From positions 1-36,797 of the IMG/VR virus record IMGVR_UViG_3300044266_000375: a DNA stretch of 36,797 nt; one strand, given 5' to 3'. A program made the translations under genes and the position numbers. Below are positions 2,215 through 36,650 of this stretch, one piece after another (position 1 is the first letter of the stretch; every line of letters begins with the position of its first letter). Source of the stretch: a virus (Duplodnaviria; Caudoviricetes). The notes below the pieces were generated by a model. That model made no database searches and had not been told where the DNA came from. It saw only the letters and a list, made by a program, of their open reading frames with translations.

Positions 2215-2402
2215 TGCTAACCACAAGCGACTTCATCTCCGGAGTCAAGCGGCGACAAGCTGAAATTGTAGAATCACTGGCGGCTGGTGTTTGTGTCAAT
2301 TTCGAGAGCTATCAACGCTTGGTCGGGCAATACCAAGGATTGCAAGAATCTTTGGACATTATGAATAATTTACTCGAAGAGGAAAGAAAAGATGTCGAAT
2401 GA
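2214..2402 (+). CDS. Small hypothetical phage protein (helical)
   Basis: ATG overlaps the upstream TGA (TGATG) and the 3' end overlaps groES. The ESYQRLVGQYQGL pattern resembles small ORFs between portal and GroES in such phages. Confidence 0.7.
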   Translation: MLTTSDFISGVKRRQAEIVESLAAGVCVNFESYQRLVGQYQGLQESLDIMNNLLEEERKDVE

Positions 2403-2814
2403 TATCGAGCAGACGCTGGACGAAGCGTTTCCCAAAATTGACCCGCTCATGGCGCCTTACGGCGGCAGGGTTTTGGTGCAATTGCGGGCTGTGAAAGAGA
2501 AAGTCACCTCAGCTGGGATTTTTATCCCCGAGGAGACCAAAGAAACCGAAAAGTGGAACACGATGATTGGGAAAGTGATCGCAATTGGACCACTGGCTTT
2601 CAAAAATCGTGAAACAATGGCCAGCTGGCCAGAGGGTGCATGGGCAAACGTGGGCGACTACGTGCGCGTGCCCAAATGGGGCGGTGACCGTTGGGAGATT
2701 GATTTCACAGACGATCAGGGCGCAAAAGGTCGCGCACTGTTCACTTTCTTTAACGATCATGAACTCATAGGAAAAGTCACCGGCGACCCGCGTGAAATAA
2801 AAGCATTCATCTAA
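2392..2814 (+). CDS. groES: GroES/Cpn10-like co-chaperonin
   Basis: PYGGRVLVQ, mobile-loop-like EKVTSAGIFIP, GKVIAIGP, VGDYV and FNDHELIGKV follow the Cpn10 pattern. Confidence 0.85.
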   Translation: MSNDIEQTLDEAFPKIDPLMAPYGGRVLVQLRAVKEKVTSAGIFIPEETKETEKWNTMIGKVIAIGPLAFKNRETMASWPEGAWANVGDYVRVPKWGGDRWEIDFTDDQGAKGRALFTFFNDHELIGKVTGDPREIKAFI

Positions 2815-22526: not shown

Positions 22527-24523
22527 CCGCCAAAGTCTTCTCTATAGACACCCTCCCTGGAGTTCAGCGAGACGGAACGGTACTGGACAAGAACTTCTAC
22601 ACAGACGGTCGTTGGGTTCGGTTCCAGCGCAAACGTCCTAGGAAAATCCTCGGTTTCAGAGAGATCGTCAACAATCTCGCTGGACCTTCTCGCGGCATTT
22701 ACCTGAACCCGCAGAACAATTTCAACAACGTCTACAGCGGCTATTCAGACGGGTTGCAGCTTTTGCCGATAACCAACACAGGGGTCGGCTCTGGAATCAC
22801 AGACATTTCACTGAGCAATTTCACGCCCAGCACTGACAATCTTTGGCAGTTCGACACCTACACCGACACAAACGGCTCGGGCAACCAGATCCTGCTCGCC
22901 CATCCTGGGCAGAATCTTTCCGACATCAACAACAGCACCAACACTCCTGTTCTGGGCAATGTCATCGGCTCAACGACAGCCAGTGCGATTGGTGTTTTCA
23001 CCATAGCCGCTACACTCAACTCCACGACCTCTGTGACGGTTACTTCCACCACACAAATTGGCGCAGGTCAGGTCGTGACGGGCACTGGCATCCCTGCCAA
23101 CACAACGGTAACAGTGGTCAACAATTCGACCACATTCACAATCTCCAACGCAGCTACGATTTCCGGCGCTTCAACGCTAACGATCGACAACCAGATCTCG
23201 GTTTCTGGCGGGGTGGTTGTGCTGCATCCGTATGTTTTTGTCTACGGCAACGCCGGACTGATCAAAAACTGTTCCGCTGGTAACATAAACGATTGGGTTT
23301 CTGCCGACGCAAACGAAACCAACGTCGCAACTGGCAAGATCGTGCAAGGGTTGCCGGTGCGTGGCGGAACGACTGCGCCTTCGGGTTTGTTTTGGTCGTT
23401 GGACTCGCTAATTCGAGTTTCCTACACTCCGACAACAATCACTAGCGGCGGGACTTCGTCAACCCTTTACTGGCGCTACGACCTGATCTCGAGCCAGTCG
23501 TCTATCCTTTCCAGCCAATGCGCCATCGAGTATGACGGGGTTTATTACTGGGTCGGCGTAGACCGGTTCTTGCTTTACAACGGTGTTGTGAAAGAAATAC
23601 CCAACGACTTCAATCAGAACTATTTCTTCGACAACCTCAACTACGCTCAGAGGGAAAAAGTCTACGCCACCAAAGTCCCGCGCTACGGCGAGATCTGGTG
23701 GTTCTATCCGAGAGGCGACTCGGTAGAGTGCAACGATGCAATCATTTACAATGTCCGTGAAGGGTGCTGGTATGACGCGGGTCAAGCCCTCGGCGCTCGT
23801 CGGTCGGCTGGTTACTTTTCGCAAGTTTTCCACTACCCGATCAATGCAAACTGGGAGTCCAACGCGACCGGCGCTGTGAATCTTTACAACATCAACAACG
23901 CTGGCACCGGCTACACCAACGGCACTTACACTCTAACAAGCCTCACGGGTGGTTCCGGCACCGGTGCTAAAGCCTCGTTCGTGGTTTCTGGGGGAGTTGT
24001 CACCAATTTCTCGATCGCAAGCCGAGGCACAGGATACAAAGTCGGCGACACCCTCGGCATAAGCCTTAGCACCGGCGGGACAGCTTTCAGCATGACGCTG
24101 ACTTACGTTATGACGTATGTTTCACTCTATCAGCACGAAATCGGCACCGATGCTGTCCGAGGCACGAGCGTGACTGCAATAGAAAGTTACTTCGAGACGA
24201 GTGACATTGGCTGGATCGGCGGTGGTCCTTCTCAAATAGCTCCAGAAGGACAGAACCGCTGGCTGCACCTGGAACGGGTTGAGCCTGATTTCGTTCAGTC
24301 TGGAACTATGCAACTTTACGTCGTCGGTCGACCTTTCGCTCAGGCTGCCGACAAAGTTAGTGCAGCTTACGATTTTGACCCGAGCACGAACAAGATCGAT
24401 ATGCGCGAACAGCGGCGAGAGCTACGGCTGAGATTCGTTAGCAACGTCCAAGGCGGCGACTATCAGCTCGGCAAAGTGATACTCAATGCAGACCTCGGCG
24501 ACGTGAGGGGTTATAATTCATGA
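22523..24523 (+). CDS. Probable tail nozzle (tail tubular protein B / P22 gp10-like beta-propeller)
   Basis: Likely ATG at 22523 (ATGA overlap); 666 aa; PGVQRDGT, WVRF, YYWVG..RFLLYNG.V, EIWWFYP and IIYNVRE..WY. Confidence 0.7.
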   Translation: MTAKVFSIDTLPGVQRDGTVLDKNFYTDGRWVRFQRKRPRKILGFREIVNNLAGPSRGIYLNPQNNFNNVYSGYSDGLQLLPITNTGVGSGITDISLSNFTPSTDNLWQFDTYTDTNGSGNQILLAHPGQNLSDINNSTNTPVLGNVIGSTTASAIGVFTIAATLNSTTSVTVTSTTQIGAGQVVTGTGIPANTTVTVVNNSTTFTISNAATISGASTLTIDNQISVSGGVVVLHPYVFVYGNAGLIKNCSAGNINDWVSADANETNVATGKIVQGLPVRGGTTAPSGLFWSLDSLIRVSYTPTTITSGGTSSTLYWRYDLISSQSSILSSQCAIEYDGVYYWVGVDRFLLYNGVVKEIPNDFNQNYFFDNLNYAQREKVYATKVPRYGEIWWFYPRGDSVECNDAIIYNVREGCWYDAGQALGARRSAGYFSQVFHYPINANWESNATGAVNLYNINNAGTGYTNGTYTLTSLTGGSGTGAKASFVVSGGVVTNFSIASRGTGYKVGDTLGISLSTGGTAFSMTLTYVMTYVSLYQHEIGTDAVRGTSVTAIESYFETSDIGWIGGGPSQIAPEGQNRWLHLERVEPDFVQSGTMQLYVVGRPFAQAADKVSAAYDFDPSTNKIDMREQRRELRLRFVSNVQGGDYQLGKVILNADLGDVRGYNS

Positions 24524-24768
24524 CAGTTCCTGTCGTTTATGACCCGCGCCATCTCTCTTGGAATGAGTGGGCTTCGCTCATGGTGGAAGCTTACGCTGGA
24601 CAGCAACTCTCCATTCCAGACAGCGAAGACAACTGGAAAGAGTGGGCTTCTGGGTTCAACGGCATTGGGCTTTTCGGGAATGACGGCGTGCCGAATCCGA
24701 ACAATTTTGCGACATGGCAAAGCTGGGCTGAAGCGCTCGTCGGCATTGTGGCCAACAGAATCCAATAA
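24520..24768 (+). CDS. Small Trp-rich protein with three WxxWA repeats
   Basis: WNEWA, WKEWA and WQSWA; ATGA overlap with the nozzle gene. Confidence 0.7.
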   Translation: MTVPVVYDPRHLSWNEWASLMVEAYAGQQLSIPDSEDNWKEWASGFNGIGLFGNDGVPNPNNFATWQSWAEALVGIVANRIQ

Positions 24769-24771
24769 GAG

Positions 24772-25059
24772 ATGAGCATGAATTTCTTAGATCTTTTCAA
24801 CGCTGTTGCAGAAGTCGCCAGACCGATTCACACAAAGTACACGCCTGTGCCGGACAAAGAGTCGATGATTGTTGACTTCGGCATGGACAGCCTTGATATG
24901 ATCATGGTTTCGGTTTTCATGTGCGAGCTGTTCGGTGTGCCCGAAGAGGTCGGCAAAGAGATGAACGCCAAAACGGTGCAAGAGATGGAAGACTTTATTT
25001 TCTCGCACAAGACACAGCAGCCTGATTCGATAGAAGCTGCTGTGGAGTATTGCAAATGA
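24772..25059 (+). CDS. acpP: Acyl carrier protein
   Basis: 95 aa and acidic. DFGMDSLDMIMV...ELFGV contains the phosphopantetheine-attachment Ser (Ser40, codon 24889-24891), followed by the typical KTVQEMEDFI last helix. Confidence 0.88.
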   Translation: MSMNFLDLFNAVAEVARPIHTKYTPVPDKESMIVDFGMDSLDMIMVSVFMCELFGVPEEVGKEMNAKTVQEMEDFIFSHKTQQPDSIEAAVEYCK

Positions 25060-26177
25060 GCATCTTCCTGACCGACTACCGCACAGCATGGACGCCGAAT
25101 GTCCGAATGGTTGGGGATATAAAGTACCCCCAGTCGGTGCACGTTTTCGAAGACACTTACAAACGCGTCTCCTCGGGGCTCGTTTATGTGCCGCACAAAG
25201 TCGCAGAGAAAGTGCTCGATCCAGAACTTTGCGAGCGGTTGCGTCAAGAAGACTGCAAAACAGCATTCATCCTAGCCAGTGGCAATGGTCACTTTGCAGG
25301 TATCGGCGCACGCCACTACGAAAACTCGCTGAGCTACACGTACAAGTTCTTGCCTTTTTCACTAACTCAAGTTTACGCAGGTCGAATCGCACAATCACTC
25401 GGTGCAGTGGATCAGATAACGACCGACGCAACTGCTTGCGCCTCATCGCTGAAAGTGATGATGGATGTGCAGAATCTCATCTGGACCTATCGGTTTGACC
25501 GCGTGATCGTGCTTTCGGTAGAAGATGGAGTTTCTAACTCTGTGTTGGATTTTTTCGGCGAAGCGCAAGCCTCACTCTCCTACGAAGAGGAAAACTCCGG
25601 CATCAAGCCTTCCGCTTTCGATAGCACTAACTATGGTTTCCGCATCGGGCAAGGCGCTGTGATGGCGATTTTCGAATCCGCTGCTTACTTGAAAAGGTCT
25701 GGCCACAAGCCCAAAGCGCAGCTGCTCGGCGCATACACTGCCTCTGAGAACTGCACCAATGCGATCGGACAGCGAGAAGACGGACAAGGATTCATCAACG
25801 CGATAAGTGGTGCGTTGGAAGTCGCTCGTGCTACGCCTGATGAAATTTCTGTGGTCAAAACTCATGGCACCGGCACCCGATCCAACAACGCCGCCGAGCG
25901 GCGTGCTATCGAAAAGATCGTGCCGAACTTCGTCGCTACTTCATACAAACCAACAATCGGACACACGATGGGTGTTTCTGGTCTGTTGGAGACCTGTTTG
26001 TTGCTCGATTCGATGGAAAAAGGCGTGGTCCCGAGAATAGAAAACCGCACAGAGCACGACTCGGTTTTCCTCTCCGAGGACAGAGAGTTCGACGGCAGTG
26101 CCGTTGTTTTGAGTCTCGCTGCAGGTATGGGTAATGTTTACTCAGCTGCTCTTTTCGACACGAGAGTTCCATCATGA
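25056..26177 (+). CDS. fabF: Beta-ketoacyl-ACP synthase (FabB/FabF-type; family-level call only)
   Basis: TACASS (Cys codon 25437-25439), KTHGTGT..N (His 25863-25865), SYK..IGHTMG (His 25962-25964), SAFD...GF.IGQGA and SLAAGMG. ATG at 25056 overlaps the ACP stop and has a GGAG Shine-Dalgarno. Confidence 0.92.
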   Translation: MSIFLTDYRTAWTPNVRMVGDIKYPQSVHVFEDTYKRVSSGLVYVPHKVAEKVLDPELCERLRQEDCKTAFILASGNGHFAGIGARHYENSLSYTYKFLPFSLTQVYAGRIAQSLGAVDQITTDATACASSLKVMMDVQNLIWTYRFDRVIVLSVEDGVSNSVLDFFGEAQASLSYEEENSGIKPSAFDSTNYGFRIGQGAVMAIFESAAYLKRSGHKPKAQLLGAYTASENCTNAIGQREDGQGFINAISGALEVARATPDEISVVKTHGTGTRSNNAAERRAIEKIVPNFVATSYKPTIGHTMGVSGLLETCLLLDSMEKGVVPRIENRTEHDSVFLSEDREFDGSAVVLSLAAGMGNVYSAALFDTRVPS

Positions 26178-26674
26178 TGGTTAACAGCAAACAGAAAATG
26201 CTCGATCCAATAGAGATCATACGCATTGCTCTGGAGAACACAAAATCTCAATACACAACCGAGGAAGGCATCGCAGCAATCATCGCTGAAACTCGCACCC
26301 CCAATGCTATCGCGATGCGTGAAGGCAACACTCTGTTCTTGATTCATTACGATCCAAAACGCAAAGACCACGGCATGTTCCGTGCATTGAACGCCGACAC
26401 CGCTGCCAACTACCTTCGCAACAGCGTGATGTTTATAAAAGCAGCGGGGCTGGCAGGGTTCAAAGTTCTCGTGAGCCAGTTCAAAGATCCAACCATACTA
26501 AACATTTTCAAATCTATCAGCCGCAATCCTCCTTTTCCAGGAATGGGTTACTCCGTTCAGCGCACAGAAGATAACGGCTACCAAGTCACTGTCAACCTAG
26601 GGCACGCAAAAGCCGCCGACAAAGGCGCTTTGCCAGCGCAACCGAAAAAGGAAACCGAAAAAGGAGCGCTGTAA
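26174..26674 (+). CDS. Hypothetical protein, possible GNAT-fold acyltransferase
   Basis: The ORF is well supported by ATGA and TAATG overlaps. The function is inferred from size, an apparent helix-helix-3 strands-helix-strand-helix-strands pattern (FIKAAGLAGFKVLVSQ), and position just before the first ejection-protein gene. Confidence 0.45.
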   Translation: MMVNSKQKMLDPIEIIRIALENTKSQYTTEEGIAAIIAETRTPNAIAMREGNTLFLIHYDPKRKDHGMFRALNADTAANYLRNSVMFIKAAGLAGFKVLVSQFKDPTILNIFKSISRNPPFPGMGYSVQRTEDNGYQVTVNLGHAKAADKGALPAQPKKETEKGAL

Positions 26675-29169
26675 TGGGTGGTGTTGTAAGAGCCGTCACC
26701 AACGTCGTTTCTGATGTTGTAGAAAGCGTTGGCGACGTAATAAAAGACGTTGGTGAGGTGGCAGAGAAAGTCGTCAACTCTGCTGTAAAGCTCGTTGAAA
26801 ATACAGTTCAAGGCGCTCTTTCAGATCCGATCGGCACGATCGCGAAAGTGGCGGCTGTCGCCACAGGCAACGCCGAACTGCTGCCCCTTATAAATGCGGG
26901 CGATGTCGTCGCGCATGGCGGAAGTTTGGACCAAGCACTCCTCGCTGCAGGCACGACTTACGTTGGGCAGGGCGTAGCGAACTACGTCTCCTCTAACCTT
27001 AGCACAGCTGACATTTACGATACAACGCCGTTCTCGGAGCAGACGCAAGCGTTGGCGCAGCAAAACGCAGGTCTCATCCCCACAGACAGCCTTTCCAGAG
27101 CGATCGGTGCAGCTGCTGGCACAGCGACCAAAGAAACCCTGAGTGGTAAAGAAGACGTAGCGCAGATTTTCGGCGATGCGTTGGCTGGTGGTGCGGGCTC
27201 TTACGTAGGCTCCGAAGTAAAAGCCAACACCCTCGACTCCCTCGGCCAAACAGGAAGCTCACTCGCCGGCAATATGGCGGGTGCAACCACGACCGCAGCG
27301 CTGCGCGGGCAAGATCCTTCCGCTGCGATCGGCAGCTCTCTGGTCAACAGCCTCGTCAGCTCGAGTTTGAGTCCGTCTGCGCCGCTCGCCCCAGTGAACA
27401 AAGCCGAAACGGAAAGTGAAACCAATTTAGCATACAACAACTTGTCGCCCGCTGACAAACAGTTTGTCGACATGTCGGTTGCGATGGGCGGAGACTTGAG
27501 CACCGCTGTCAACTATGCAATGGCGAATCCTTCGTCACCAGCTCCAGGAACGCAGTACGCTTCTCTCACGCCCGAAACAATGACAGATGTACCAGTTGGC
27601 TCGGGAGACGCAGAACCTGAAACAATAGACGTAACGCTGGGCAAAGGCTCGGGCGGCGCTCCCGGTGCTCCGGGCGCTCCGGACAGCTACGGCTACGAGT
27701 TCCCTCCTGGATCGAAGTTCGACAATGGCATGACCTATCTCGGCGATGGCGTTTGGGACATTGACGGAAAACAATGGACTGTCGGCATTGAAGGCTGGAA
27801 CGACAAAACCACGCCGAATGGTCAATTCTTTGAAGGTCTCGCCTCGCAGCTGGGTGTGAAAAGTCCGATCGAAGCAAAGCTGGTTCAAGCTCAGGAGCCA
27901 ACAGAGCCTGTCGTCGATCAATCCTCCACGACTGTGCCTTTGATTGTCTCAGGAGAGGTGACTCCGCCGCAAACACCGCCGACCTCTGTTTCTCCGAATG
28001 TTTCGGTGCTCGAACCTGCACCAACCTCCGATGCATTGCAGCAACTGCCGCCTGATCTGGCAGGGATGGTCACAGAAGACGCAAAAAATCTTTCTCAGTC
28101 CGGCTTCTCGAATCAAGACGTTATTTCGCTCATCTCGAACACATATGGTTTGGACACGCCCGTTGTCACTGATCTCGTTTCGAGCTTGACGACTCCGGCA
28201 GCGACTTCTTCAACGGCTGTAGCAACACCATCTACTTCCGCTTCAACGACAGAAATTGCTCAAACAGTCCCCGTTTCAACGACTACTGCTCCGGTGACAG
28301 AGGTTGTTGAGCAGCCAACTGCACCTGTTGTTACTGCGCAGGAAGAAGAGCAGCCGAAAAAAGAAGAGGAGAAAACAACAACTCCTCCGATCAGTGTGCC
28401 TATCGTCACGCCTTCTGTCGTCGCGCCTTCTGTCACGACTACGACTTCCGCCCCTTCACAGAATCTGTTTTTCGGTGCAGCGGGTGATTCCTCTTCGAGT
28501 TCTGCTGGCGCTCTCCCGAAGGGACTTTCCGCTACTTACCTTCCAGCTGCGCCCGCTCAAGGAACGACTATGAATTTGTTTCAGCTGAAACAGCTCTATC
28601 CGCAACTTTCCACCATCGACCCGAAACTGCTTTCTCTGATCACAGGGAAACCCGTTTCACCTCTGGGCTCTCTAGACACTGACGGAACTCATCTCTCTGT
28701 AGGGAATGCCTCTGCCCCGAGTCCGGGATACCCTTCTCGCGCTTCTGGCCCAGAAACGAGCTCGACTTCTTTCGCGCCGACCCGAGAATTTATGAGTGGT
28801 AATTATGACGCCCTTTCTTCGGCTGGGCTGCGTGCTATGGGAGCACTCCCAAGCTACGGGCTGAAAAAAGGCGGCAAAGTGAAAAACCGCCCAGCTCCTC
28901 TTCATATTCCTGAATTCAAAACTGGCACCACAGGTCACTTCGTTCAAGGCAGAGGTGACGGTCAGTCGGATGATATCCCTGCTATGCTAGCGGATGGCGA
29001 ATACGTTTTCGACGCCGACACAGTAGCAGCTCTGGGCAATGGATCTTCAAAAGCAGGTGCACTCGTTTTGGACAAAATGCGCGAAAATATAAGGAAACAT
29101 AAGCGCTCCGCTGCTGAAGACAAAATCCCTCCAAAGGCTAAATCGCCTTTAGAATACTTGAAAGGTTAA
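26674..29169 (+). CDS. Probable internal virion/DNA-ejection protein (Met-Gly N-terminus)
   Basis: AAGGAG Shine-Dalgarno; amphipathic N-terminal helix; Ala/Gly-rich helices; Pro/Thr/Ser linker; LKKGGKVK; C-terminal GDGQSDDIPAMLADGEYV domain. Confidence 0.6.
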   Translation: MGGVVRAVTNVVSDVVESVGDVIKDVGEVAEKVVNSAVKLVENTVQGALSDPIGTIAKVAAVATGNAELLPLINAGDVVAHGGSLDQALLAAGTTYVGQGVANYVSSNLSTADIYDTTPFSEQTQALAQQNAGLIPTDSLSRAIGAAAGTATKETLSGKEDVAQIFGDALAGGAGSYVGSEVKANTLDSLGQTGSSLAGNMAGATTTAALRGQDPSAAIGSSLVNSLVSSSLSPSAPLAPVNKAETESETNLAYNNLSPADKQFVDMSVAMGGDLSTAVNYAMANPSSPAPGTQYASLTPETMTDVPVGSGDAEPETIDVTLGKGSGGAPGAPGAPDSYGYEFPPGSKFDNGMTYLGDGVWDIDGKQWTVGIEGWNDKTTPNGQFFEGLASQLGVKSPIEAKLVQAQEPTEPVVDQSSTTVPLIVSGEVTPPQTPPTSVSPNVSVLEPAPTSDALQQLPPDLAGMVTEDAKNLSQSGFSNQDVISLISNTYGLDTPVVTDLVSSLTTPAATSSTAVATPSTSASTTEIAQTVPVSTTTAPVTEVVEQPTAPVVTAQEEEQPKKEEEKTTTPPISVPIVTPSVVAPSVTTTTSAPSQNLFFGAAGDSSSSSAGALPKGLSATYLPAAPAQGTTMNLFQLKQLYPQLSTIDPKLLSLITGKPVSPLGSLDTDGTHLSVGNASAPSPGYPSRASGPETSSTSFAPTREFMSGNYDALSSAGLRAMGALPSYGLKKGGKVKNRPAPLHIPEFKTGTTGHFVQGRGDGQSDDIPAMLADGEYVFDADTVAALGNGSSKAGALVLDKMRENIRKHKRSAAEDKIPPKAKSPLEYLKG

Positions 29170-33763: not shown

Positions 33764-33934
33764 TCAGGGCGTGTTTGACCCCGCAGAGTTTGTGGGGTCT
33801 TTTTTTGCCTTCATGGTTGCGAGTGTCCAAGCTTCGAGCCATATGTTGTACGGGTCTTCGAGCAGATTTTCGTTTTTGGTACGTTTGAGCAAATCGATCC
33901 AGTCGTCGAACTCTTTGCGTGCACTGTCAAGCAT
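33764..33934 (-). CDS. Small hypothetical protein
   Basis: ATG at 33934 overlaps the 3' end of dnaE; MLDSARKEFDDW...PYNIWLEAW. Confidence 0.6.
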   Translation of the reverse strand: MLDSARKEFDDWIDLLKRTKNENLLEDPYNIWLEAWTLATMKAKKDPTNSAGSNTP

Positions 33935-36650
33935 TTTCCACCACCTTCCATTTTTCAATTTGCAACATGCGGATACCGTTTCCGCCCATCCGCCCCCTTG
34001 CCAGCATAACAGCCCCGATCGGAACAGACTCTAGGATCTCTTTGCCCATGCGCTCGTAGTCTTTGCGCCGCACCGTGAGGATTGCTAACCCTGTGTCGTC
34101 GCGCAGCGTGATGTTCAACCAATACCGGAACTGCCGGTCGTAGTCAGTTATCACACCGCCACGTTTCATCACGTTGCCGGTTTCCAATGCGTCGCGTAGG
34201 TTCTTTTCCGCCAACACGCCGATCACGACACGCTCGGAAGAGTCCGCCTCAAGCTCATTGCACTTTGTGAGCACAGAACCCTCTTTCAGCCCGTGCTTCC
34301 TCGGGTTGTTGTACCAGTCGCCGAACCGCGCTGTGAACGGGTAAGGGTCTGGCCATTTGAGCTTTGGGTTCTCGAGTTTGGCAGTTATACTTGGGGGCAG
34401 CGGCTTCCCCGAAACTCGAGAATCGAGCACCTTTTGAGCCATCTTTGGACCAATCCCGTGAACTGCGGTAAGCCCACCGTAAATTGCATCTCCTTTAGCT
34501 GCCCAGCTGGCTTCAGATCGATCTTTGTCGAAAGCCACGTACTTGAAACCCTCGCCGGTTATCTCCCGAAGAAGTTTCAAAACAGCTTCGTCATCCGAGG
34601 TGTGGCGGAGGGAAGCTGCACTGAACTCCAATGGGTGATGGTATTTCAGCCAAGCTGTCCAAGCGGAGATGACGGAGTATGCAGCAGCATGTGCCTTCAC
34701 GAAGGCATACGACCCTGCATGCATCATTGAGTTCCAAACTTCGAGTGCAGCTTCGCGGTTTATGTCTTGCTTTTCCGCGCCTTCGAGGAACTTGTCGCGG
34801 AACTGATCGAAATATTCTTTGCCCAAAGATTTCGACATCGCTCGGCGCAAAGCAGTCAGCTCTGGCCATCCGAGCAAGCCGATGTCTCTGCCGAGGAAAA
34901 GGATCTGCTCTTGGTAAACCACGACCCCTTCGGTCTGTTCAGTCCAGCGCCTGTGGATGTCATGGTAATACATCGGGGTGTCTAAGCCTCTGCGCACATC
35001 TAAGAACTTTTTAGCGCCGCCGGACTGCAGTGGTCCAGGACGCGCCAACGAAGTGAGTGCAACGATGTCGTTGAAGTTCTTCACCTCGAACTGCCGCAAC
35101 AGCTGCCGAGCAGCGTCACCTTCAAGCTGAAACACGCCAGTTATCTTCTGGCTATTGAGCAGGGTGTAGATCTCTGGTGCGTGGACGTCGATGTCGGTTA
35201 TCTTCTTGCCGACTCGGTCGAGCGTTTCTTGCACGATATCGAGGGTTTTCAGACCCAACGCATCGAGCTTCATCAAATTGAGGGACTCGGCTTGGTACTT
35301 GTCGATCTGACTTATGCCTTCCGCTGTGACAGAGCAATAGTCTGCCACCGGCGTGTTGCAAATGATCACCCCTGCAGCGTGCACTCCTGCGTGAGAGGCG
35401 TGCCCTTCAAGTGCGCCGGAGTTCCTGAATCCAGGGTGCTTTTCCAGCAAGTCGCGCCCCGCCTTGAGCGTGCCGAGGGTGTCCTCCAAGCAAAATGCTG
35501 CACGCGAGTCACCCGAGGATCGCTCGATCATGTTGTCGCGGATCTCGGTGGTTTCCCAAACGGGTATCTTCATGCGCTTGCCGACACCGGCGAGGATCGA
35601 CTTCGGCTTGAGTTTGTTCACGTTGCCGAGCCGAGCGATGCTTTCCGCGCCGTATTTCCCTTTGAGGTATTCGAACAGCTCGTCGCGACGGTCTCCGGGA
35701 AAGTCCATGTCGATGTCGGGCAAGTCGATCCGAGTCACATCGACAAACCGCTCGAACAACAGCCCGTGCTCAATCGGATCTAGCTCGGTTATACCCAAAA
35801 GATAACAAATGATCGACCCCGAAGACGAACCGCGTCCAGGACCAACGAGCATGCGCTCTCTCGCCCAGCGGATCAAGTCGTACACCATCAGGAAATACGA
35901 CTCAAACTGTTTCTCGCGGATCACGCCCAATTCCCGCTGCAGCCGAGCCTCGTATTCATCACTGAAACCATTCGGGAAACGCCAGCTGATACCTTTCCTA
36001 GCCTCAGCCTCGAGATCGCCTTCTACGACCATGTTTTTGGCCACCGGCAGGGTGATTTTCTCGAACCGCTCAGCTGCCTCTTCCCAGCTGACGGTCGGAT
36101 AATGATGAGCAGCTTCCGCCGCTGACCACCAATGTTGCGAGTGCGCGCCGAGCCGCACCCCTAGGAGTTCTGCGTACTTGCGGTCGGTCGGGGCGGGGTA
36201 GCGCACGTCAGAAACAAAAAACAGCGGCAGCCCCGTTTTCCGAGCCAGCTCGAAGTTACGCTCATTGAGCAGCGGGTTGAGCGGGTGCAGGTCGAGCATC
36301 ATGTCTGCGGCTTGAACTTTGCTGGCTTCCGCCGTGAAAGGGAACACGAGCAGGTTGTCGGAGAACTCGGTTTCGTAGGTGATTCCGGCACTGTGGCGAT
36401 ACAGCTCGCGCAACCCTTCTTGGTTCTTGGCGAGCACCTTGATCGAGCGCTCCTCGTCTCCGACAGAGAGCTCCGCTCCGAGGATCGGCTGGATGCCCGC
36501 CTTTTCTGCCGCCTTGAAAAACGGCACATGACCCCAAGTGCCTATGTCGCAGAGGGCGGCTTTTTTGCACCCGAGCTCCTTGGCTCGTTCTACGACTCTG
36601 TTGATTGGGCCAAAACAATTCCCGAACGTGAACTCACTTCTTGTTATCAT
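33927..36650 (-). CDS. dnaE: DNA polymerase III alpha subunit-like (family C)
   Basis: GPGRGSSSGS, LLFERF, PDIDMDF (catalytic Asp residues), GVHAAGV, KLDALGL, GVFQLE, RPGP, VYQEQ, YAFVKAHAAAY and the HhH motif HGIGPK; N-terminal PHP-like and C-terminal OB-like regions. Confidence 0.95.
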   Translation of the reverse strand: MITRSEFTFGNCFGPINRVVERAKELGCKKAALCDIGTWGHVPFFKAAEKAGIQPILGAELSVGDEERSIKVLAKNQEGLRELYRHSAGITYETEFSDNLLVFPFTAEASKVQAADMMLDLHPLNPLLNERNFELARKTGLPLFFVSDVRYPAPTDRKYAELLGVRLGAHSQHWWSAAEAAHHYPTVSWEEAAERFEKITLPVAKNMVVEGDLEAEARKGISWRFPNGFSDEYEARLQRELGVIREKQFESYFLMVYDLIRWARERMLVGPGRGSSSGSIICYLLGITELDPIEHGLLFERFVDVTRIDLPDIDMDFPGDRRDELFEYLKGKYGAESIARLGNVNKLKPKSILAGVGKRMKIPVWETTEIRDNMIERSSGDSRAAFCLEDTLGTLKAGRDLLEKHPGFRNSGALEGHASHAGVHAAGVIICNTPVADYCSVTAEGISQIDKYQAESLNLMKLDALGLKTLDIVQETLDRVGKKITDIDVHAPEIYTLLNSQKITGVFQLEGDAARQLLRQFEVKNFNDIVALTSLARPGPLQSGGAKKFLDVRRGLDTPMYYHDIHRRWTEQTEGVVVYQEQILFLGRDIGLLGWPELTALRRAMSKSLGKEYFDQFRDKFLEGAEKQDINREAALEVWNSMMHAGSYAFVKAHAAAYSVISAWTAWLKYHHPLEFSAASLRHTSDDEAVLKLLREITGEGFKYVAFDKDRSEASWAAKGDAIYGGLTAVHGIGPKMAQKVLDSRVSGKPLPPSITAKLENPKLKWPDPYPFTARFGDWYNNPRKHGLKEGSVLTKCNELEADSSERVVIGVLAEKNLRDALETGNVMKRGGVITDYDRQFRYWLNITLRDDTGLAILTVRRKDYERMGKEILESVPIGAVMLARGRMGGNGIRMLQIEKWKVVENA

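Follow-up and report, generated by a model that had tools for sequence, protein, structure and literature searches.

The virus record IMGVR_UViG_3300044266_000375 of IMG/VR was analyzed over its whole length of 36,797 nucleotides (nt), hereafter called the window. This 36.8 kb record, which is about 65% complete, contains a podovirus-type late operon with the gene order portal, capsid, adaptors, tail fibers, holin and endolysin, and nozzle, followed by a region encoding an acyl carrier protein (ACP), a beta-ketoacyl-ACP synthase (ketosynthase, KS), a protein of 166 amino acids (aa; ORF166) and a protein of 831 aa (ORF831). An initial annotation of the sequence had read these four genes as a system that attaches an acyl chain to a virion protein, most plausibly to the N-terminal glycine of ORF831. 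All four open reading frames were confirmed on the plus strand (Table 1), together with the stop/start overlaps ATGA (25056-59), ATGA (26174-77) and TAATG (26672-76). Such overlaps also occur at other junctions of the late operon (24520/24523, 30213/30216 and 31931/31934) and thus do not single out the four-gene chain. The genes are chained behind the nozzle region as described, but an additional gene of 82 aa intervenes between nozzle and ACP. The ACP-KS module is real, widespread and apparently undescribed, and its link to the acylation of a virion protein is plausible but unproven.

The KS matches the Pfam families PF00109 and PF02801. Its structural model (pLDDT 91.4) adopts the thiolase fold and was aligned by Foldseek to FabF with an E-value of 9e-25 and a TM-score of 0.80. 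Residues C128, H270, K298 and H303 are invariant in 67 of 67 aligned relatives, and the Cys-His-His triad aligns with that of FabF. The relatives occupy two sites, one in the virion gene block and one in a replication block; according to the alignment columns, the catalytic residues are kept in all 60 virion-site copies and in 10 of 11 full-length replication-site copies. At one replication-site locus (L520) the catalytic Cys reads as Arg, which points to an inactive copy or to an error in the sequence. FabF and FabB are characterized by a GFGG loop with a gatekeeper Phe and by the motif HGTSTxxGD. No GFGG loop is present in the phage KS, which harbors an invariant loop G357-M358-G359-N360, with M358 found in 72 of 72 sequences. 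Its scores stay below the curated cut-offs for FabF (TIGR03150, 110.8 vs 493.75 bits) and FabB (NF005935, 42.4 vs 630). Judged from its residues, the KS is predicted to work like FabF, yet neither the curated scores nor the loop motif makes it a member of that family.

The KS family is almost wholly viral, as the atlas clusters to which it belongs consist of 86-100% virus sequences. No close cellular relatives were found in GTDB contigs, where single-sequence patterns gave one weak match, and none in 151 genomes of one phylum at an E-value of 1e-30; identities to plasmid sequences were below 30% among the matches listed. The size of the KS-ACP family was estimated from one motif at about 670 stored stretches in IMG/VR. 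The same gene order is present in GenBank entry MW202545, in which the KS is named and its neighbors are annotated as hypothetical.

The ACP of the window alone matches known families weakly (PF00550, E-value 0.031, score 15 vs a cut-off of 20.8) and does not reach the cut-off for AcpP (TIGR00517, 16.2 vs 70.45). A profile of its phage family matches ACPs of fatty-acid synthesis with an E-value of 2.7e-6. Residues D39-S40-x-D42 are invariant in 40 of 40 sequences; the protein is small, acidic and helical, and its serine belongs to a DSL motif. An ACP with a GMDSL motif and a KS with an intact Cys-His-His triad had been proposed for the window, and in both proteins the catalytic residues are indeed intact and conserved among relatives. 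Searches of 20 near-complete records revealed neither a phage phosphopantetheinyl transferase nor a FabG-type reductase, with 10 and 13 of 14 controls detected, respectively. No other lipid or tailoring gene was present among 107 of the 176 listed proteins of three complete genomes, in a scan that left out proteins longer than 700 aa and some short ones.

ORF166 has no annotation in Pfam, PHROG or NCBIfam. Its model (pLDDT 88.6) comprises a single domain, residues 4-151, with the GNAT fold, and superposes on RimI with a Z-score of 11.3 and a root-mean-square deviation of 2.6 Å over 121 residues; the fold was also recovered by Foldseek, and the structural re-alignment (VIA) covered the chains ranked by Foldseek. 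All 50 top structural matches listed are acetyl- or acyltransferases, generic small GNATs, headed by an N-alpha acetyltransferase. The possible acyltransferase of the initial annotation therefore has a transferase fold according to model and structure search. ORF166 also matches a BFVD model named internal virion protein A (IVP-A; E-value 7e-5), and DUF2824 occurs in 10-27% of the members of its atlas neighbors. PF11039 and PF11090 gave no Pfam match for ORF166 and were absent among the matches listed (25 of 40 families) for 63 relatives. Based on the model, ORF166 is IVP-A-like in its predicted fold and in its position. The pattern R/QxxGxG/A, the usual motif of GNATs for binding the pyrophosphate of CoA, is present in only seven of 159 GNAT cluster representatives; 148 of the 159 contain NxD[TIV] instead. 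Absence of the CoA motif fits ACP-dependent GNATs. Complex prediction for ORF166 (residues 1-148) with the ACP yielded a score of 0.01 and a mark of 0.32, which speaks neither for nor against an interaction. In a genome without ACP and KS (G004, locus L314:292-780) an ORF of 162 aa lies opposite the ejection genes; it appears GNAT-like by eye and has no Pfam match.

ORF831 starts with MGG, and its ATG is preceded by AAGGAG 7 nt upstream. The N-terminal helix has a hydrophobic moment of 0.60 compared to 0.21±0.07 for shuffled sequences, none of 1000 shuffles being as high. Apart from a short PHROG motif match to the C-terminal GQSDDIPAML, no further PHROG match was obtained. The protein is a predicted ejection protein, a label derived from position and composition, and the following gene of 347 aa has no solved-structure match. 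Of 138 representatives, 23 have the C-terminal motif in the protein encoded next after the GNAT, and many relatives have two separate ORFs in place of ORF831. Attachment of the chain to Gly2 would require this residue to be conserved. The window and its three nearest relatives start with MGG, but across the family glycine is found at position 2 in 36 of 94 clusters with the ACP-KS pair and in 28 of 57 without it (Fisher p 0.23). A small residue (Gly, Ser, Ala or Pro) occupies position 2 in 92 of 94 and 54 of 57 clusters, respectively, and an amphipathic helix comes after it. At the level of the family, the conserved feature is this small residue, with a free N-terminus, before an amphipathic helix and not Gly2. 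At four loci (L032, L050, L195 and L361) the first predicted ejection protein carries an extra leader of 25-35 residues, which ends in LEGGGG in three of them. Leader cleavage is known from P22 gp7; by analogy, these leaders may be removed, uncovering a different N-terminus.

Conservation of the gene order was assessed in two samples. In the first, 276 KS-bearing loci were grouped into 98 clusters at 95% identity. The ACP lies directly upstream of the KS in all 96 clusters with room for it, and in 87 of the 95 with room on the other side the next gene is the GNAT. In the remaining eight clusters the pair belongs to a replication block, where it either follows an SNF2 helicase or precedes the genes that lie downstream at this site. 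No gene is inserted between KS and GNAT at any locus of this survey. The second sample was drawn by a DNA motif and not by similarity, with duplicates retained; it comprised 119 loci, of which 39 without flanks were left unclassified. Among the 80 with flanks, the GNAT is next to the KS in 61, the pair is at the replication site in 14, one locus shows another arrangement and four have no room, leaving 76 classifiable loci. In 97 clusters picked for KS-GNAT adjacency the junction between the two genes varies by only 16 nt, compared to a range of 229 to 1397 nt for the distance from nozzle to ACP.

Starting from the GNAT, 431 loci formed 159 clusters at 90% identity, with the pair adjacent in 97, none adjacent in 58 and only an ACP in four. 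Adjacency changes seven times on the GNAT tree (FastTree) and is present in both of its deep halves. Two complete phages of 36-38 kb retain the block ACP-KS-GNAT-amphipathic protein, although none of their proteins matches the portal, capsid, adaptor or nozzle of the window (blastp, E-value 1e-3). The gene order expected from the initial annotation therefore holds between KS and GNAT at most loci, but some complete genomes have the GNAT and its neighbor without the pair. The non-structural contexts that had been named as evidence against a lipidation system do occur in part, namely the replication site and, at one of 76 loci, a DUF2269 neighbor.

In three of the relocated cases (G001, G040 and G043) the pair follows a helicase on the opposite strand, at a distance of 18-20 kb, and homologues of the GNAT and ORF831 are kept; G264 is a fourth such record. 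The GNAT is still encoded in all four relocated-pair records that reach the virion block. Eight replication-site KS copies form one clade with support of 94/92 in a careful tree of 27 rows. A fast tree had hinted that the pair went back from the replication site to the GNAT, which the careful tree did not support. A reduced form is found in the complete 62-kb genome G091, where an ACP lies directly before the GNAT and a KS is present nowhere in the genome. The ACP-only genes are under purifying selection, as the ratio of nonsynonymous to synonymous substitution rates is about 0.07-0.11 in three of three pairs. At L124:5131-5406 a slightly shortened ACP precedes the GNAT directly without a KS; this locus is close kin of a pair-bearing one and probably represents a recent KS deletion. 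Absence of an adjacent pair cannot be equated with its loss, as most such loci are fragments of 7-47% completeness, and in three of the first four found whose sequence extends to the replication site the pair is located there. Conversely, the KS in 15 of 15 near-complete records is not a rate, since these were mostly picked knowing that it was present.

The features of the window are listed in Table 1. The 82-aa gene has no family match of useful significance in Pfam, PHROG or NCBIfam. The GC content is even over the region, and a promoter scan gave results at chance level. In a clade of about 65 kb genomes, an AT-rich element (TGCATTAGT-like) occupies the gap after the 82-aa gene and precedes the ACP or the GNAT (L082, L084, L086, L092, L321, L349, L358 and L359), in some cases followed by an ORF of 50 aa; this element is probably a late promoter. 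Outside the late genes shown, the window encodes a GroES-like protein (2392-2814, plus strand) between the portal and scaffold region, which is present in relatives too, and a phage DNA polymerase III alpha subunit (DnaE; 33927-36650, minus strand). Relatives with the same virion block have DnaB/RusA or PolA modules.

Table 1. Late-operon features of the window around the ACP-KS pair.
Feature	Coordinates	Strand	Evidence
Tail nozzle, 664 aa, upstream boundary	22529..24523	+	phmmer match to solved podophage nozzle gp16, E-value 8e-8; PHROG virion structural protein
Small conserved gene, 82 aa, between nozzle and ACP	24520..24768	+	Kept also in loci without ACP-KS
Phage acyl carrier protein, 95 aa, predicted phosphopantetheine site Ser40	24772..25059	+	Invariant D39-S40-x-D42; profile match to ACPs of fatty-acid synthesis
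Phage-family beta-ketoacyl-ACP synthase, 373 aa from ATG	25056..26177	+	Cys128, His270, Lys298, His303; family-specific motifs HGTGTxxNN and GMGN
ORF166, single-domain GNAT fold (residues ~4-151), IVP-A/P22-gp14-like	26174..26674	+	Model, structural and atlas matches
ORF831, 831 aa, predicted first ejection protein, candidate acyl acceptor	26674..29169	+	N-terminal amphipathic helix (residues 2-45); phrog_6090 motif; position
Three more predicted ejection proteins, 347, 573 and 606 aa	29173..33751	+	Position and composition only
Intrinsic-terminator-like hairpin, end of late operon	33777..33799	+	10-pair stem and T7 tail; consensus match only

Taken together, we tentatively favor, at somewhat less than an even chance, the reading that ACP and KS are an optional, phage-owned acyl supply for the GNAT, which would acylate the amphipathic N-terminus of the first ejection protein. 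In such a pathway, Ser40 of the ACP would be activated by the host AcpS, and the KS would condense malonyl units on the phage ACP while host Fab enzymes carry out the reductions. Host methionine aminopeptidase would free the alpha-amine of a Gly, Ser, Ala or Pro residue, so that the route would not be glycine-specific, and the GNAT would move the chain from acyl-ACP to this alpha-amine or to a nearby side chain. The acylated helix could then aid the entry of the ejection protein into the cell envelope. In phages without the pair, host acyl-ACP might serve the same step, as it does for NodA without NodFE; the dispensability of the pair is tolerated by this reading because of that possible substitution. 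The reading accounts for the fixed KS-GNAT junction, for the passage of the block from one virion type to another, for the lone conserved ACP and for the missing CoA motif. The more general proposal that IVP-A-type GNATs are acyl-ACP-dependent transferases lipidating the first ejection protein, to which this family has added an ACP and a KS that choose the chain, is possible, if rather doubtful.

Several observations weigh against a supply line for the GNAT, and most of them are expected if the pair is instead an independent accessory that feeds into or diverts host fatty-acid synthesis. The pair would then provide extra elongation capacity, change membrane lipids or act as a decoy carrier, with the late operon as a tolerated and well-expressed site, and the GNAT would be an ordinary IVP-A morphogenesis gene that acetylates or chaperones ejection proteins on its own. 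We consider this explanation doubtful, though a substantial possibility. The pair is dispensable, as G082 and G090 (both 100% complete) and G004 (96%) encode the GNAT but neither ACP nor KS, and both known pair sites are empty in G049 (77% complete). It is also relocatable: the replication-site copies are far from the GNAT and yet mostly keep their catalytic residues. The copy at this site in G043 is one independent horizontal arrival, showing that the pair can be replaced without the GNAT. No signature tracks the pair in its supposed partners, since loci with and without it do not differ in any GNAT residue, in GNAT consensus or charge, or in the N-terminus of the acceptor (hydrophobic moment 0.45 vs 0.46, p 0.58). 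Tree congruence drops smoothly with gene distance, from 0.70-0.76 for ACP and p82 to 0.53-0.57 for ACP and GNAT (43 loci), so ACP and GNAT show no special co-inheritance. An apparent excess congruence of GNAT and KS (rho 0.74 vs 0.39 for the nozzle, 74 loci) vanished with adjacent-gene controls at 43 loci and was rejected as evidence. Sequence conservation is much stronger in the KS than in the GNAT (median p-distance 0.32-0.39 vs 0.55), as expected of an enzyme facing conserved host partners. Furthermore, podoviruses are generally known to have a GNAT-fold gene at this place, and a GNAT protein that has lost the CoA motif may just as well be non-catalytic. A weak search, restricted to proteins of 374-2000 aa, did not reveal the GNAT as part of any longer fusion protein. 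Finally, the unrelated phage G258 (76% complete) has a DUF2269 membrane protein gene between those of an ACP and of a divergent member of the KS family, and no member of the ORF166-type GNAT family was matched in this incomplete record. These three genes lie directly before an SU10-type portal gene (L529:1536-3306), and three identical copies of the stretch are stored in IMG/VR. The accessory explanation covers relocation, traceless loss and the DUF2269 case better than the supply of acyl chains to the GNAT. It leaves unexplained why the pair is fixed against the GNAT over unrelated head and nozzle types, why insertions occur upstream of the ACP and not between KS and GNAT, and why an ACP without a KS has been conserved immediately upstream of the GNAT. 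In addition, a general benefit should have spread wider, but only one of the 76 motif-drawn loci lies outside the two sites of the family.

The pair might also supply an acyl or short ketide group to a different acceptor, via the GNAT or a host transferase. This could be a lipid, a small molecule, a lysine inside one of the later ejection proteins, or some other protein of the virion or of lysis. The condensing residues, which appear intact in all contexts, would be consistent with this, as would the lack of a pair-linked feature at the N-termini of ORF831 relatives and the DUF2269 partner in G258, which suggests interchangeable downstream partners. We regard it as unlikely, as the three complete genomes contain no other lipid or tailoring gene among the 107 proteins scanned and ORF831 accompanies the GNAT whether the pair is present or not. 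In its strict form, the initial proposal had four dedicated genes lipidate Gly2 in the manner of N-myristoyltransferase. The MGG start of the window and its three nearest relatives agrees with it, and the three leaders ending in LEGGGG could expose a glycine. Given the distribution of Gly2 described above, and a single GNAT domain of 150 aa in ORF166 in place of the tandem domains of N-myristoyltransferase, this form is very improbable for the window and largely refuted at the level of the family.

If acyl supply to the GNAT is confirmed, tailed phages would lipidate a DNA-ejection protein by means of a phage-encoded supply line. The small GNAT-fold gene preceding the ejection genes in many podoviruses would thereby be assigned a role, and the entry of ejection proteins into the cell envelope would be easier to explain. 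Even as an accessory, the pair would constitute a widespread and almost wholly viral KS-ACP family that was not found described in the literature searched. Phages with the pair, with the ACP only, with a relocated pair and without a pair provide a natural comparison set, and the question is thus testable.

Compared to known systems, the pair resembles FabF/FabB and AcpP in the thiolase fold, in the Cys-His-His triad with its lysine and in the ACP gene directly before the KS. The phage KS differs in showing only about 20% identity in structural alignments, in being about 40 aa shorter, in its score and motifs, and in belonging to an almost wholly viral family without fabD/G/H context. The GNAT shares with IVP-A (T7 gp13, P22 gp14/DUF2824) the small fold and the position between nozzle and ejection genes; in T7 and P22, no ACP or KS is known to adjoin the IVP-A gene. 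No activity for IVP-A was found in the literature searched. T7 gp14, the counterpart of ORF831, is described as forming an outer-membrane pore (PMC8954989); in the accessible part of that article the terms acetyl and acyl do not occur, and the accessible part of PMC9728967 contains nothing on the gene in question. Host-like fabG-acpP-fabF genes are reported from three putative prophages of Rhodobacteraceae (PMC8224337). They share with the phages studied here an ACP and a FabF-type enzyme in (pro)phage sequence, but the accessible part of that report links them to neither virion genes nor a GNAT, and no FabG was detected in the 20 near-complete records. The arrangement ACP-KS-GNAT itself was not found described in the literature searched, which did not extend to subscription journals.

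Myristoylation of the entry proteins of eukaryotic viruses is similar in concept, as a lipidated N-terminus precedes a membrane-active helix. Eukaryotic N-myristoyltransferase is a host enzyme with tandem GNAT domains that needs Gly2 and myristoyl-CoA, and these requirements do not hold for the phage module. HlyC and other TAATs, FeeM and LuxI have a GNAT-related fold, an ACP donor and no CoA loop, and HlyC acylates a membrane-penetrating protein. None of them is among the top 50 structural matches of ORF166; moreover, HlyC is not known to have a private KS and the others use small-molecule acceptors. Rhizobial NodF, NodE and NodA constitute a dedicated ACP, a KS and an acyl-ACP-dependent N-acyltransferase, and NodFE are dispensable since NodA can use housekeeping acyl-ACP. 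The acceptor in that system is a chito-oligosaccharide, and ORF166 is likened to NodA by arrangement and not by homology. The phages nevertheless resemble it in keeping ACP, KS and a transferase-fold gene together in the great majority of KS clusters without this association being obligatory.

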